From contig JANNBC010000052.1 of NCBI GenBank assembly GCA_031385045.1, positions 64,001 through 128,000 on the forward strand: DNA of 64,000 bases, in the 5' to 3' direction. Shown here one piece after another: positions 24,001-33,000 of this stretch. The position numbers are program-made. This DNA comes from a bacterium. GTDB lineage: Bacteria > Bdellovibrionota_C > UBA2361 > CALJRW01. Position 1 is the first letter of the stretch; each line of letters begins with the position of its first letter.

Positions 24001-27000
24001 ATTTCTTGTACTCATCGCTACTCAACGTCAGAGCAAGTTGAATTAACATTTCCAATTGTAGTGAAAAAAAGTGGACGAAGGGAAAACTTTCGTTCTGAAA
24101 AGATTCGGCAAGGATTGATTCGCTCCTGCCAAAAGCGTCCAGTTTCTCTAGATGACATTGACGAGACAGTTCATGATATTGAGCGCCAAGTATCAGAGTT
24201 AAGTACAAAAGAGATTCCTAGTGAAGAAGTTGGTAATATTGTTATCGCTGCTCTAAAGAAACTAGATAAAATTGCATATCTGCGCTTTGTTTCTGTATAT
24301 CGAGAGTTCTCTAGCTTGGAGCAGTTTCAGGAAACCCTAAAAGAATTAGAAGAGTAGGGTTGTAGTTTATAAGGCTTTTTTAAATCTTGGATCGTTTCTA
24401 AAAAAATAATTAATTTAACGGAAATCCTTTTCCAGTTTAATAATATTTTCCCAGCTAATAGTGCTATCAATCCAGAAATGCTCTGGGGTGACAACAACTT
24501 CTCTAAACCACTCGATGTTAAAATCTTCTGTTTTTTCCGCGGGACGAGCTATTTCTTGCGCTCTTTCTAAGTATACATCTAAAGGAATTGCTTGAATTCC
24601 GGGAGCCCAAGCAAAGTGTTTTAGTTCTTTAGGATGATTAATCGGGTTAGTCAGATCTCTCTCTTGATAGTCATTTGGATGAGGGTTAATTATTAGGACT
24701 AATTTATGTTCAGCGTCATAGCCATGAAAGGCTACCGCATGCATCGAGTAGCCTTTGCTCGTTTGATAAATTGCTTTGCTACCACCTTTTTCCTTCACTA
24801 GTTTCTGAAGATCTTTTTCATCTAACTTACTCCATTCTAGAGAGAGTAAGACAGGTTGTTTGGTCCCAACTTGAGCTAGCGCTTTAATTTCTTGCTCTGT
24901 ATTAGGTGCAGGAAGCACAACAAACTTTTGATGGGTAATTAAGCTAAGAATTTTTGCCATGGAAGCCATTGTTGCGCCGTAGCCATACTTATACTTTCGA
25001 TCTGCAGAGCGATGACAATCAGTCAAAGGATCATAAATTGCCGACCCATTTGCATATTCCATCAGGGATGTTTGTAGTAAGAGTTGCATCCAATCATCCT
25101 GTTTGGGAACGTTTTTTAATCCGGCTTGGCAAGCAATAATTGGTGTTGTTGATACAATCGCTGGAAAATCTGAGTCTGTAATATCTTGATAATTGGCCTG
25201 ACCTTTGCAGTATAGGTTACTTGTTAATCGAATAATTTCTAATGGATAATGCTCGGCTAGTTCCAAAGTAGTGGAAGTCGGTGCACAAGTGCCTAAGTGT
25301 CCTTGATTAAATCCAGTTATCCAAAAAGCCACTGTTTCAATAATTGTCCCAATAGCCTTAGCAGGTTTAACGTCCAATCCTTGGATTGGACCTTGCTGAA
25401 TCATTTGTAAGAGTAGTCCTAAGGTTTCTGCACTTTGTGACCCAGCAAGTAATTTGCCAACACCACGATCGGCATCAATAATTTGTAAGAGCTGGCGGTG
25501 TTGCTTTAAGGTATCAATTTGCTCTACTTTGATTAGTTCTGCATAAATTTTAATAATTGCTTCTTTATGTTGGCAGTTCAATTCTTGATAGCCTGATTGA
25601 TTAATCAACTGGGTAAGGGAGAGGTTGTTTGTTAGGCAACTTTTAAATATTTGATCTAGTAGCGTTAAGGACTGAGGGGTAAGCCCAGATAGAAAGGGGT
25701 GCCCAGTAAACATTTCTAGATTACTGTGAAAATGTGGAAATAAAATAGTTTGCCCAGTATTAATTCGGAACTGCGGGTTGATTTTTGCAGTTGGCAGATT
25801 TAAAAAGTTATTAAACTTAATTAGCTCTGGAATTGTAAAGCGATCTTCTGGAGATAAAAGCTTGTTTATTTCTTGGTGGACTTTTTCTAGGACATCACCT
25901 TTGCTAATTTTATAATAAAAAATATTTCCTTCTGCCGGAAAGAATTTTTTAGGATCGGCAAATTTTTGAGCTTCTTCTTTCTCCCAAAGATTATAATCAG
26001 CTCTTTTAATGTTTGTACCAAGTTGTAGTGCTTTTTTTGAAACTAAGTGACGATCTTGCAAATATCGATATAGTGTCGAGTATTCCGTATTTAAGCCTAG
26101 CTTCTCGGCAATCTTAAAAACTGTATCACCTGCTTGCGTTGTATATTCCTGCAAATCATTAGTTTTGTTAGGTAGTAGGATCGGGATCGGTGGAAGACTA
26201 CACAGCTCTAATTGAGGGGTTACTTTTGCTTCGGCACCAAAAACTGTTGTCGCAAGAATCAGCGACTGAGCGATACGATGAATTGAATTGGTACTACTAG
26301 ACATCAATTTTTGAAGACTGCTTGCAATTTGAACATAAAAAGCAAGATCATCTTACTCCAAAATTAATCTTAATCTAGAAAAAAATGATTAAGCAGGGAC
26401 TTTTTTAAAGCCTAAGCCAAAGTCTAAAATGCACTACCAACACTAAAGTGGACTCTCCAAGTAGATTCGCCTTCTAAGCGATCTAGTGGGTGGCCAAAAT
26501 CTAAGCCAATCGGACCAATCGGGGATTTAAAGCGAAATCCAAGACCAACGCTTTCTCGCAGATCGGAGTAGCTAATCGCCGTTTGATTTAGAAAGACATT
26601 TCCCACATCGTAAAAGCTATGTAATTGCAGATATTGATTTAAGCTATAACGTAATTCTAAGTTATTACTTAGACTTAAGTCACCGCCAATTACTGCTCCA
26701 TCAGCACCTTTTGGTCCTAAGGAATTTTCACGGAACCCCCGAATTGAATTTCTTCCTCCCAGATAATACCTTTGTGAAATTGGAATTGCCGGAGTACTAT
26801 CATAGGTCCAGGCAGAGCCTAAAGCGAAGTTATTTGCCAATGTAAATGGTGTCTCCAGAACTGGTGCAGTCCAAGAAGCCCGTCCCAGCAAGGAATAAAA
26901 GCTAGCGTCTGATTCTATTGTTTTACTAGCTAGCTTATAGTCTAAGCCAAAATATAAACCTTGATCGGGTCGGGAAGAATCATTTCTTAAGTCTAAGTTA

Positions 27001-30000: not shown

Positions 30001-33000
30001 TTCTTTAGTTCTGCCTTTCCAAGGATTTGAGGCTCACTAAAAGTTCCGCGAAGATTAAGACTAGCTGCGAGATTCCCTCTTAAGTCACTTAGCCAAGGAG
30101 TTAGGATAGTCAGGGCTTTTAATTGTAAATCGCCATTAATATCCAAGTTGAATGTAGAATCTAGGGCGGCACTACCTTTCACTAATATTTCCGAGTTAGT
30201 GCCATGGAGGCCAAGCTTAATTCCGGCAAGGCGGCCTTCAGTGATTTTAATCTGATTTGCTTCGTCAAGTTTTAAAGCATATTGGTTACATCCAATATCT
30301 AATTTACTAATTTTTAAGTCTCCATTTCCAACAGCAAAATTTTGGGGAGCAAAATTATAGTTAGCTTCTAAGGTCGTTTTCAGGCAATCATACTCTGGAT
30401 GATAGTCGCTAGTTTGAAAGTCATTTAATTTAATTTTAAACTGACTATCAGAATAGTTGAGTAAGTCATATTGTAAACTAGCGCTTAGGGACTCTGTTGG
30501 ATTGACTAAGTTTAAGTCAATCAATCCAGAGTCCAATTTAATTTTCCCATTTAGTGCTGATTCGCCAGCAAAGAATTTAGTGCTGAGGCTCAATGTGCCA
30601 TTTCCAACAAGTTTACTAATTTCTGCTGGGCCCGCAATATCCCCTTGACCGCTTAAATTGAAGTCTTGTAGTCGATCAAACTTTTTATTTTGAAAGTTAT
30701 AATTTTTAAAATTATAACTTAACTTTTCTAAGAATAGTTCTTCATCGACAGCTGGTAGTTTAAGCTGTCCAGAGACTTCCATCGTCCCTTGATTATTAGT
30801 GTTGAAGTGTTTTAGGTCGACACTAACTTCTTGATCGATTTTGCTGATTTCCCAATTGGTATTAGGAAACTCAAAGTCATCAATGCTCAGGTTACGTAAC
30901 TGACCTGTCACGTGAAAATTTGGATTGTTAGATTTTCCAGACAGGGCAACTTTGGCTGAGATGTTTTCTAGTTTATAGCGATCAAAAACTAGTGATCCAA
31001 TTTGTAAGTTCACACTTCCAGCCACTCCATTGCGATCAAAGAGGACAGGTTCGCCAACTTTAATTTTAAGATTATCATTAGCGAGACTGAGATCGTCAAT
31101 TTGAAAGGAAGAATCAGGCTCTAAGTGTTTAAAGGCATACTTACTAGTAAAGCTATCAAACGTTAGAGGAGGTATTTGAGGAAGATTAATTGTTAGCTGG
31201 GAGTCAGATGCTAGTGCTAGGTTTCCAGTAATTAGAGCATCTTCAACTTTGCCAGTAGCCTTTGCCGTACCAATCATTTTACCTTGCCAGTCCGCAAGTT
31301 GATAGTCTGTCGAATCAATTTCATAATTAGAATTGAAGTCAAACAGATCTGTAGTTTTAATCAAGTTTCCCTCCAGATTAAAATCTGAAGCTTTTTGGTT
31401 TACTTTAATATCAGAGAATTGTACTTCTTCATGAACAATTTTGACTTTACCATTGGCGTTTCCAACATCTAGCTGATCATTAAAAATGATTGTCCTGATT
31501 TTTGGTTTTAAGACAAAGTCATCCGCCGCATCTCTATGTAGATCTAATTCTCCACCAAGGAAGTCAATTTTTTGGCCAGCAATAGTTTCCTCCGCGCGTA
31601 AGCCCCTAATCCTTAATTCCATTAATTTTACTCGCCAGCGATTAGGATTTTTTAATCTTTCTGGGGATGGTGGTTTAGTTAATTGTTTAATAAATTTGTA
31701 GGTGGCACTTCTCCCTAAAACTCCCGCCGAAAAGCCATCTGTTAGATCCAAGCGTCGAAGATAAACTTTTTTTTGAAAGATTTCTTTAATATCAAAAGTT
31801 AATTTTAGTTTTTCAAATTCTAATCCAATCTTACCGTCTTCTTTAATGCGAGCACCTTCAGCGGAGGCTGATAGGGTGAGTAGCGAGACGTTGAGTTTAT
31901 CAACCTCAAAGGTGCAGGGGCAGGATTTTGCAGTTTCTTCTTCTAAGATTATGATTAATTCTTTGGCGATATAGGATTCAGTTACTTTTACTGCTAGACC
32001 AATTATTAATCCTAGGATAATTCCAGTAATTAAAATTAGATTTTTTTTTGGTCTCTTCATAAATCTATTTTGAGCCTGAAGAGTAGATTAGGTAAGAGAT
32101 TATTCGAAAGGTTTTTCGACGCTATGTTTCCAAGCATGATAAGAGCTACGAACCAAAGGACCTGATTCGATAAACTTAAATCCTTTTTGTCGTCCAACGT
32201 CTTCATACTCTTTAAACTCTTCTGGTGTGACAAAGAACTTTACTGGCATCTGCTTGGCAGAGGGGCGTAAATATTGACCAATTGTCATGATATCAACGCC
32301 ACAATCTAGCAAGTCATCCATTAATGCAAAAACTTCTTCTTTAGTCTCACCGAGTCCGACCATGATACCTGATTTAGTTAGTGTTTGGGAACTAAGTTCT
32401 TTTGCCCAGCGAAGGATACTGAGTGATTTAATATAGCCAGCTTTTGGTCTAACTTTGCGATAAAGTCGAGGTACGGTTTCGACATTATGATTTAGGATGT
32501 TGATATTTTCCTTCATGATGATTGCTAGGGCATCTTGATCTCCATTCATGTCTGGAATTAGGAATTCAATTCGACATTCTGGTGCTTGAACTTTGATGGC
32601 TCGAGCAGTTTGTGCAAAATGTCCTGCGCCGTAATCACTTAGATCGTCGCGATCTACTGAAGTTACAACTGCATGTTTTAAACCAAGTCTTTGGATTGCT
32701 GTTGCTACGCGATGTGGTTCGAACTGATCTAAGGCCACTAGATTTTCCGAGGTTCCGTCTTTGACATTACAAAAGTTGCAACGTCTGGTACAGAACTCAC
32801 CCATGATCATAAAAGTTGCTGTGCGATGTGCCCAACATTCTCCGATGTTGGGACACATCGCTTCTTCACATACAGTTACTAAGTTAAGTCCCTTCACTGT
32901 TTCTCTAGTCGCTAGGTATTCCGGAGAGCCAGGTGCTCTGACCTTTAACCAACTAGGTTTAACAATTTGTCCCGGGGTTCTAGGTACTGGAATACTCATT

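Follow-up and report, generated by a model that had tools for sequence, protein, structure and literature searches.

The reading frame and its surroundings

The window analysed here, a stretch of 64,000 nucleotides from a genome of the bacterial order UBA2361, contains an uninterrupted reading frame with an ATG start (Table 1), in which a signal anchor, a TamB bridge, the DUF490 domain, six POTRA domains and a 16-strand Omp85 barrel follow each other in this order. Pfam assigns TamB to residues 722–1063 (E 6e-31; PF04357, i.e. DUF490, scores 108 bits against a cut-off of 22.4), POTRA to 1078–1130, POTRA_2 to 1236–1291 and Omp85 to 1594–1878 (E 9e-45). In the host genome, which is 95% complete, the fusion gene is the only TamB match and one of two Omp85 matches; the other is a 757-aa BamA in a context of the lol-bamA-skp-fabZ-lpxA type, as read from N-terminal sequences. 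A query of this genome with PF05170 (AsmA family) found no match. The first-pass annotation had described TamB and its Omp85 partner as one chain of 1,878 residues, with no separate tamA and BamA as the only other Omp85, and both statements are borne out by these counts, by the frame and domain matches and by the stop-free conservation described below.

Table 1. Features of the fusion gene and its upstream neighbours, with positions in the window and residue numbers (res) of the encoded chain
Feature	Position	Strand	Basis
Whole reading frame, TamB-POTRA(6)-Omp85 fusion, 1,878 aa	26424..32060	-	frame and Pfam; stop-free in 86/91 genomes of the order
N-terminal signal anchor (res 5-46; hydrophobic core 8-26), then amphipathic helix	31923..32048	-	hydropathy, model
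TamB body (res 49-721), predicted continuous beta-sheet bridge, one face hydrophobic	29898..31916	-	AF2 pLDDT 83, alternation, Foldseek
DUF490 beta-taco and first helix (res 722-946)	29223..29897	-	Pfam PF04357; structural alignment
Six C-terminal TamB strands (res 988-1070); last (1059-1070) is the retained, internal beta-signal strand	28851..29099	-	two models, column conservation
Short junction of fixed length (res 1071-1076)	28833..28850	-	alignment spacing
Six POTRA domains (res 1077-1542), the fifth without first helix	27435..28832	-	model secondary structure
16-strand Omp85 barrel (res 1546-1878); strand 1 = 1546-1555; loop-6 GG..RGF; terminal Phe	26427..27425	-	Pfam, model, alignment
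lipA, conserved upstream neighbour (marker of the orthologous locus; no functional link claimed)	32100..32999	-	adjoins the gene in 7 fused and 8 split loci
pdhC (pyruvate dehydrogenase E2), conserved upstream neighbour	33008..34255	-	2 fused and 8 split loci

All carriers seen are metagenome assemblies, which might suggest that assembly or gene calling joined two genes. A query across the junction (residues 881–1380) however finds matches in 86 of the 91 genomes of the order, including 54 of the 55 high-quality ones, mostly in frames of about 1,860–1,960 codons; all 86 best matches are stop-free and 85 of them cover the entire junction, at identities of 24–33% within the order (76% within the genus). 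Well over 100 full-length representatives are known. Because the junction is thus conserved, an artefact is for practical purposes excluded. In addition, a contig of a second, independent assembly, possibly of the source sample, spans the gene with zero differences, and two other DNA runs cover it in short pieces only; no RNA data set is listed as holding the gene. In nearly all genomes of the order that have TamB, the fusion is the sole TamB match. The earlier statement that the fusion is conserved across the order therefore stands, although it is not confined to UBA2361 and occurs in Acidobacteriota as well. The independent Acidobacteriota family, the split precursors and the consequence for a hybrid barrel, all treated below, had escaped the first-pass annotation.

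The TamB half

Judging from hydropathy, the chain probably starts with a signal anchor as in other TamB proteins: the value is 2.65 in this copy, a hydrophobic 19-mer of at least 1.8 is present in 57 of 61 full-length fusion rows, and the four misses look like late start calls. No lipobox was found at the N-terminus of these 61 rows. In the AF2 model, anchor and amphipathic helix form one continuous helix.

The TamB body is predicted to be an extended beta-taco with a hydrophobic groove. Alternation is seen in 33 of its 54 strands against 17 after shuffling (maximum 27, 500 shuffles), and the lipid bridge LPD-3 ranks second in Foldseek (E 6e-9); model residues 48–208 align with the LPD-3 N-terminus at Z 5.9, a weak score. 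An N-terminal anchor and a long hydrophobic beta-groove are also features of bridge-like lipid transfer proteins such as LPD-3 and the AsmA-like YhdP and YdbH, which, unlike the fusion, dock on separate partners and for which an Omp85 barrel of their own is not reported in the literature examined. The DUF490 model superimposes on E. coli TamB (9xdd_B) with Z 15.9 and 3.7 A rmsd over 260 residues, and the E. coli channel residue I1102 corresponds to V898 (L, I or V in 161 of 183 rows).

The six C-terminal TamB strands show membrane-type alternation. The beta-signal is recognisable by D or N in column 1063 (165 of 183 rows; N in this copy) and by Y, F or W in column 1066 (150 rows). Unlike in the TamB family, where DUF490 and an aromatic beta-signal stand at a free C-terminus, the strand is internal and has lost its terminal Phe, position 1070 being A or S in 124 of 183 rows.

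The junction

A link of 15 residues between the two halves had been proposed, an estimate that was wrong because the Pfam TamB match stops before the beta-signal strand; the last TamB strand ends at 1069–1070 and POTRA1 begins at 1077, leaving about six residues. From column 1063 to 1082 the spacing is 20 residues in 82 of 88 rows, 19 in four, and 37 and 41 in the remaining two.

These data bear on the possibility that the chain is a polyprotein, cut near the junction or past the anchor to yield an ordinary two-part translocation-and-assembly module (TAM). For BAM, a barrel still attached to the inner membrane is an uncommon kind of substrate, and in the Acidobacteriota fusions the link is longer, variable and rich in P, R and A, both of which would fit cleavage; the short link of fixed length in the present family however has no conserved motif, internal signal peptide or hydrophobic segment, the anchor runs into an amphipathic helix that is conserved, and only one of 61 rows shows an A-x-A site, by a crude test that also missed the site of E. 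coli BamA. We therefore consider cleavage improbable.

The Omp85 half

The 16-strand barrel, the POTRA arm, the loop-6 RGF and the terminal Phe place the second half in the Omp85 superfamily. G1768, G1769, R1774 and G1775 are invariant among rows with a residue there, and F1878 is kept in 144 of 151 such rows. The earlier annotation had called this half TamA while leaving open whether it was closer to BamA. This doubt resolves towards TamA: in the tree the fusion barrel falls among TamB partners, E. coli TamA being one of them (SH-aLRT 96), separately from the BamA clade of the class (100), and POTRA4-6 plus barrel fit TamA with 4.5 A across 518 residues, whereas superposition on full-length E. 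coli and Neisseria BamA chains is mostly at 12–22 A. Co-variation (see below) further points to a TamB partner contacted through strand 1. BamA would in addition have its own cleaved signal peptide and five POTRAs, neither of which applies here, and it is separately present in the genome; the BamA equivalog cut-off is missed (243 bits vs 297).

The name TamA is nevertheless too narrow, because there are six POTRAs instead of the three of proteobacterial TamA and because this half descends from the 6–7-POTRA Omp85 of split relatives; the NCBIfam TamA equivalog cut-off is missed widely (131 bits vs 625). This half is best described as an Omp85 with six POTRAs that partners TamB; it is neither a three-POTRA TamA nor the BamA of the host genome.

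Strand pairing between the two halves

For the co-variation analysis (mean-field, 172 rows) the register was fixed beforehand from the E. coli disulfide pairs T267/E1258, E269/Q1256, G271/L1254 and G273/D1252, placed by motif match. In this register the last TamB strand and barrel strand 1 reach a mean Z of 1.74, third among 105 strand pairs and attained by 2 of 13,825 ladders, both in the pre-set register. When barrel halves were exchanged among near relatives, the value dropped from 1.24 to -0.43 +/- 0.13 (maximum -0.13, 30 draws). In the Acidobacteriota fusions (173 rows) ladders of the predicted register take the top three places among 17,425, although three ladders in other registers exceed the pre-set window (1.58). 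The method is noisy, as true hairpins are missed (beta3-4 0.70, beta4-5 0.79, first TamB hairpin 0.69), and it depends on placement: MAFFT puts E. coli D1252 four residues off the motif match, and its register scores 0.50. No clear ladder was found between the TamB coupling-loop region, a helix and low-confidence loop in the model, and POTRA5; the top pairs of this region, TamB 935–937 with POTRA6, are weak.

Structure prediction lends indirect support. When larger barrels are superposed on the AF2 model, a single alignment takes in both the last TamB strands and the Omp85 barrel (AlgE 341–1173, OccAB4 315–1144, FimD 280–1176; Z 9.9–11.2, rmsd 5.7–7.6 A). Hybrid barrel and POTRA ring are read here from alignment end points, and the bare TamB sheet without Omp85 also matches barrels at Z of about 7. 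For the beta-signal block, pLDDT is 68 without the barrel and 89 when it is present. Complex prediction of the two halves gave weak support, with a score of 0.36 against 0.00 for the best control, contact agreement of at least 24% and a partner pLDDT of 61; of the 157 solved pairs 116 came up to the mark, as did 2 of the 215 mismatched ones, but at scores up to 0.60 only 18 of the solved pairs did so, along with both mismatches. As a similar complex has already been solved, this prediction may show likeness only.

Taken with the retained beta-signal, the in-register co-variation in two families and the swap control suggest that both halves still come together in a common, intramolecular barrel, with a closed POTRA ring. 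If instead the TamB strands stayed periplasmic and the barrel closed, the protein would merely be a mechanical tether between the membranes. The lost terminal Phe and the absence of the E. coli salt bridges (K283 corresponds to F1563, R368 and D1200 to variable positions) would agree with such a relic, which the co-variation in two independent families, the membrane-type alternation of all six strands and the hydrophobic groove nevertheless render very improbable.

Origin of the fusion

Relatives within the class keep split genes at the same pdhC-lipA locus, from which it is concluded that the fusion arose in place (neighbour counts in Table 1 are from 70 loci searched, most with too little flank). 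There, an Omp85 of 852–995 aa with 6–7 POTRAs (six Pfam POTRA stretches) lies directly behind tamB, and it is from such an Omp85 that the fusion barrel half descends. A 630-aa ORF downstream is common only to the locus of the same genus and was not counted in the system.

Acidobacteriota hold a second fused family of separate origin, as a single origin is rejected (AU p=0.0002). These proteins have the same architecture and strand-pairing signal, yet differ in length (about 2,000–2,400 aa), arm (about 415 aa, five POTRA lengths), the longer link and the kept Phe. In three trees, two fusions of the class itself, L035 and L036, fall among split genes, and their link keeps a split-type tail; they might represent a second independent fusion within the class, but one clade of class fusions is not rejected (p-AU 0.31). 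Among long relatives of E. coli DUF490 (at least 1,699 aa), none of seven carried an Omp85 domain, which is weak evidence regarding Proteobacteria. A single-protein scan for an Aminicenantes-type copy gave no match, and alignments of diverse sequences did not yield a pattern usable for scans.

Comparison with known systems

The signal anchor, beta-taco bridge, DUF490 with helices and six terminal strands are those of E. coli TamA-TamB, known from cryo-EM (9xdc/9xdd, PMC12800296) and nanodisc structures (PMC13119328); the beta-signal is, by co-variation, predicted to pair with barrel strand 1 in the same register, and the last three POTRAs and the barrel adopt TamA geometry. Differences are the single chain instead of two subunits, the six POTRAs instead of three, the gene order (tamB, then omp85) and the K283 and R368/D1200 contacts, which are not kept.

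Another close system is the "duplicated BamA" of Heinz et al. 2015, a TamB partner with 6–7 POTRAs in Acidobacteria and Aquificae, encoded as a separate protein in one operon with TamB (PMC4494059): like the fusion it is a second Omp85 beside canonical BamA, has a long POTRA arm and is encoded with tamB, and the split partners of the class are of the same type. The words "fusion" and "fused" do not occur in the main text of that paper. Borrelia BamA-TamB (BB0795/BB0794) shares the tamB-first order (PMC4494059), a POTRA start near the POTRA end (POTRA1 near POTRA5 of five) and a predicted hybrid barrel (PMC13382580), whereas it consists of two proteins and its partner is the only, essential BamA. 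Our literature searches, like the earlier ones, found no published TamB-Omp85 fusion, the Acidobacteriota family included.

Proposed mechanism

We consider it probable that the protein is a natural one-chain TAM, held in both membranes and serving chiefly as a phospholipid bridge, with a hybrid barrel and closed POTRA ring, and derived from gene fusion in place. The N-terminal helix would stay in the inner membrane, as family and hydropathy indicate, about 900 residues of beta-groove with a hydrophobic face would span the periplasm, and the C-terminal barrel would be placed into the outer membrane by the separate BAM of the cell. The last six TamB strands may then enter the lateral gate, the internal beta-signal pairing antiparallel with strand 1, so that the hybrid barrel would have 22 strands at most. 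Since the beta-signal strand would end beside the start of strand 1 and enters POTRA1 within about six residues, the six POTRAs must loop out and come back as a closed ring, with which the arm lengths agree (at least five POTRA lengths in 386 of 387 measured fusions); POTRA4-6 would take over the role of the three POTRAs of TamA. Lipids might move down the groove until the DUF490 helices let them go at the gate, in analogy to the proposal for E. coli TAM (PMC13119328). As to origin, an adjacent tamB-omp85 pair would have fused and the partner lost its signal peptide, in an event distinct from the one in Acidobacteriota.

Whether the gate ever opens is a further point. [quoted passage not shown] The nanodisc structures on the other hand show one stable hybrid state (PMC13119328), and 74 of the 78 complete genomes of the class have a separate Omp85 of BamA size listed. 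In favour of toggling, the loop-6 motif and strand-1 glycines are invariant, and the covalent link to POTRA1 alone does not forbid release; for a closed gate, with 1553 facing 1873 as derived from E. coli G273/G572, co-variation is however at background (0.24), in a test weakened by invariant glycines. On balance we regard such toggling as rather unlikely. A bolder form of the one-chain bridge, which we put forward tentatively, is that of an uncleaved two-membrane polypeptide whose own upstream strands permanently fill the lateral gate (about 22 strands, covalently closed POTRA ring), which has given up insertase duty to become the fixed outer end of a lipid conduit, and which evolved at least twice and only with an arm of five or more POTRAs.

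Significance

One gene here encodes both halves of a machine that carries lipids from the inner to the outer membrane and whose halves normally dock as two proteins. Two structure papers of 2026 contradict each other on the TamA-TamB hybrid barrel, which is either permanent or alternates with a second working state, and TAM would accordingly be a lipid bridge, an insertase or a combination of the two. Natural fusions in which the docking strand appears to co-evolve with strand 1 would be evolutionary evidence that the docked state is selected. They also raise the question of biogenesis, namely how BAM folds a barrel while its chain is still anchored in the inner membrane, and they offer a stoichiometric, non-dissociating construct for full-length structures and lipid-transfer assays, and thus a natural test of the mechanism.

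The fusion gene and its conservation

TamB and Omp85 are joined in a single open frame of 1,878 aa on the minus strand (window 26424-32060), as the first-pass annotation had described. Pfam assigns TamB/DUF490 to residues 722-1063, followed by POTRAs and an Omp85 barrel (1594-1878), and the protein stays below the NCBIfam equivalog cut-offs for BamA (243 of 297 bits), TamA (131 of 625) and TamB (32 of 825). The gene inventory stated earlier was also recovered: the fusion gene is the one TamB match of its genome, and the two Omp85 matches are the fusion and a 757-aa BamA on a different contig.

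Conservation across the order, likewise claimed before, was borne out by matches to residues 881-1380 in 86 of 91 order genomes, the remaining five being 62-92% complete. All 86 best matches are free of stops and 85 cross the whole junction. When a profile of 88 sequences was run against 1.84 billion representatives, the best 150 matches listed were mostly full-length (about 1,800-1,950 aa); fragments and stand-alone partners of 931-944 aa came next. The stop-free junction in the order genomes and the full-length representatives exclude an artefact of assembly or gene calling. Conserved cysteines are found at residues 47-49, 559, 591, 1133 and 1140; C559 and C591 do not vary across 100 rows, C1133 co-varies with C1140 (Z 10.6), and the conserved cysteines probably form periplasmic disulfides.

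One genome of the order, G009 (1.8 Mb in about 20 contigs, 92% complete), lacks a TamB match and has a single Omp85, possibly due to TAM loss in a reduced genome or to an unassembled gene.

Elsewhere in the window, a 630-aa ORF (24415-26307, minus strand) has no Pfam match and is common only to a same-genus locus; its Atlas neighbours below 0.8 hint, as a lead, at LysM and a papain-like peptidase. An Alternative complex III-type operon (13157-20512, plus strand) encodes a cytochrome c, a molybdopterin-family/FeS subunit, NrfD, ActD and another cytochrome c. The stretch 34563-35727 (plus strand) carries two overlapping ORFs, one of 186 aa and secreted type with four RTX-type calcium-binding repeats, the other an uncharacterised one of 215 aa.

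Predicted anatomy

Two AlphaFold2 models were generated, model A for residues 1-1075 (50 rows, pLDDT 82.9, pTM 0.53) and model B for residues 700-1878 (88 rows, pLDDT 80.7, pTM 0.70).

Predicted features of the fusion, in its own residue numbering
Feature	Residues	Basis
N-terminal helix	5-46	AlphaFold2
Long strand run (TamB bridge)	up to 931	AlphaFold2
Helices, low confidence	947-985	AlphaFold2
Six TamB C-terminal strands	988-1069	AlphaFold2
Six POTRAs, fifth without first helix	1077-1542	AlphaFold2
16 barrel strands	from 1546	AlphaFold2

Among 61 full-length fusion rows (not de-duplicated), 57 have an N-terminal hydrophobic segment with a score of 1.8 or more, and a lipobox at the N-terminus is found in none. 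Of the 54 strands in the TamB half, 33 have one clearly more hydrophobic face (average of 500 shuffles 17, maximum 27). The best structural match of this half is E. coli TamB (Z 15.9, rmsd 3.7 A over 260 residues), and Foldseek finds the lipid bridge LPD-3 (E 6e-9) with a low TM-score.

Affinity of the Omp85 half

POTRA4-6 and the barrel superpose with TamA of P. aeruginosa (518 residues, 4.5 A) and of E. coli (509 residues, 6.3 A), whereas the deviation from full-length BamA chains of E. coli and Neisseria is 12-22 A; two chains without their first POTRAs reach about 6 A. The earlier doubt whether this half is closer to BamA or to TamA thus tips towards TamA-like: in a barrel tree of 105 rows it joins the TamB partners, E. 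coli TamA among them (SH-aLRT 96), and the class BamA is separate (SH-aLRT 100). For 74 of the 78 complete class genomes, a separate Omp85 of BamA size is listed.

Evidence for pairing of the last TamB strand with the barrel

There is evidence that the fusion has an intramolecular hybrid barrel. According to PMC13119328, strand 1 of E. coli TamA is the pairing partner of the last TamB strand, with in vivo TamA/TamB cross-links at T267/E1258, E269/Q1256, G271/L1254 (weak) and G273/D1252; the first two pairs are also reported in PMC12800296. As the fusion removes the free TamB C-terminus, the survival of this pairing was examined. The beta-signal strand persists: of 183 rows, 165 carry D or N at 1063 and 150 an aromatic residue at 1066. 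Its spacing to POTRA1 is constant, 82 of 88 rows having 20 residues.

For mean-field direct-coupling analysis, the register was fixed beforehand by equating D1063 with D1252 and G1551/G1553 with G271/G273, which gives pairs summing to 2616; 172 rows were used (213 aligned, 183 without near-copies, 11 gappy ones dropped; effective number 161). The predicted ladder has a mean Z of 1.74 and ranks third among 105 strand pairs, after two true hairpins; only 2 of 13,825 ten-pair ladders reach this value, both in the predicted register. After exchange of barrel halves among near relatives the ladder scored -0.43 +/- 0.13 (30 draws) versus 1.24 on the same reduced columns. In a separate family of Acidobacteriota fusions (173 rows), the best three of 17,425 ladders are all in the predicted register, the exact ten-pair window scoring 1.58 and being exceeded by three ladders of other registers. 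The closed-gate register is at background (0.24) in the first family, and in the Acidobacteriota family strand 1-16 ladders score 0.32 at most, invariant glycines blunting both tests. The method is noisy, several true hairpins scoring below 0.8, and automatic alignment moved D1252 four residues from the motif match, a shifted register that scores 0.50.

The AlphaFold2 model is indirectly consistent with a hybrid barrel. Barrels of other families each match it in a single superposition running from the last TamB strands through the Omp85 barrel, namely AlgE (from 1040), OccAB4 (from 1014) and FimD (from 979), known by end points only and in full-length numbering; barrels match the bare TamB sheet too (Z about 7). 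TamAB structure entries were released in January 2026, which presumably postdates the training data of the AlphaFold2 weights used here. Complex prediction of the two halves scored 0.36 versus 0.00 for the best control (agreement at least 24%, partner pLDDT 61), such scores being seen in 18 of 157 solved pairs and in both passing mismatches of 215; it hints at a pairing of the halves, for which likeness to the solved complex may account.

Split relatives and origin within the class

TamB is present in 31 of 33 class genomes outside the order, and 20 loci were fetched from 19 of these 31. Five are fused; in the other 15, tamB is directly followed by a separate Omp85 gene (852-995 aa) whose product has an N-terminal leader of its own and shares the arm of the fusion. 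Because lipA (7 fused, 8 split) and pdhC (2 fused, 8 split) are shared neighbours among 70 loci searched, mostly with short flanks, fused and split forms occupy one chromosomal slot, and together they form one clade of 41 rows (SH-aLRT 99 in the barrel tree, 100 in the DUF490 tree). Fusion of an adjacent tamB-omp85 pair would be the simpler direction, since splitting would require a new signal peptide.

A further, separate fusion origin inside the class is suggested, but a single clade of class fusions is not rejected (p-AU 0.31). Candidates for a separate, recent fusion are the fused copies at L035 (2077-7683) and L036 (3726-9353), with 17-21 additional link residues like the C-terminal tail of split TamBs. 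That tail, 10-30 residues past the beta-signal strand and without terminal Phe at the split class loci L039-L053, may have eased fusion by read-through. The near-complete genome G101, outside the order, holds a split pair (L039, contig C2) and a fused copy (L034, contig C3); the latter lies on a 21-kb contig, clusters with the order's fusions and may represent a transfer or a binning error.

A second family in Acidobacteriota

The second family, reached via one distant match, comprises 173 proteins; nearly all of the best 120 listed carry both Pfam domains, and taxon-named members come from Aminicenantes, Vicinamibacteria, Thermoanaerobaculia, Terriglobia and other Acidobacteriota. TamB and barrel share one frame at 61 of 73 genome loci, most of the other 12 being cut by contig ends or frame-broken. 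In a sample of 201 Acidobacteriota genomes, frames above 1,950 codons, not individually checked, were seen for 34 of the 150 TamB matches listed (another 110 lie beyond these, and one unpublished-genome row was left out). At 20 stand-alone tamB loci, tamB precedes omp85 in 14, follows it in 5 and has none nearby in 1. A tree with the 53 fused rows constrained to a single clade was rejected (p-AU 0.0002, LG+G4 quick tree), so there are at least two fusion origins.

In the acidobacterial genome G124 (loci L182, L184, L186, L195), three frames of 2,275-2,313 codons each start with a TamB end and contain an Omp85 barrel; a split tamB-omp85 pair is present as well, and the set is read as paralogous bridges.

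Previous reports

Full-text literature searches, with subscription papers mostly outside their scope, found no paper on a TamB-Omp85 fusion. The words 'fused' and 'fusion' are absent or unrelated in the available parts of PMC4494059, PMC4104836, PMC12800296, PMC13382580, PMC11014939, PMC10345924, PMC6791001 and PMC4827864, and the corresponding parts of PMC12419801 hold no relevant TamB passage. The architecture is visible in ESM Atlas clusters, and automatic database names of some Acidobacteriota proteins already combine both names. Heinz 2015 refers to a few very long TamB sequences in its supplements, which may bear on the novelty of the fusion. Two long TamBs of 2,485-2,669 aa (P0293 and P0294, one named from Thiolinea sp.) have the additional Pfam family PF25784 and no Omp85 domain.

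Proposed mechanism and function

If antiparallel to strand 1, the beta-signal strand would end on the periplasmic side, adjoining the end of POTRA6, and since POTRA1 would start about six residues further on, the POTRA arm would close as a ring. The arm lengths fit this model: of 399 fusions tried (not de-duplicated), 387 could be measured, and in 386 of these the stretch from the last TamB strand to strand 1 has 374 aa or more, with medians of 478 and 415 aa in the two families and a single exception of about 100 aa; the survey was seeded with these families, so that short-armed fusions elsewhere could be missed.

Lipid delivery is the most likely job of the fusion, because its own strands would fill the gate and nearly all complete class genomes list the separate BamA-sized Omp85. 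BAM would insert the barrel, the chain would remain uncleaved and lipids would flow along it. For E. coli TAM, PMC13119328 shows such delivery by lipid densities and by a loss of cardiolipin in the I1102R mutant; I1102 maps to V898 of the fusion, where L, I or V occurs in 161 of 183 rows. Several points count against this reading of the fusion: the salt bridges of E. coli TAM and the terminal Phe of TamB are not retained, the coupling loop differs in appearance, and an open state and an insertase activity are reported for E. coli TAM as well.

The fusion is a real and conserved single-chain TamB-Omp85 bridge of repeated origin, a variant of TAM and not a new kind of system.
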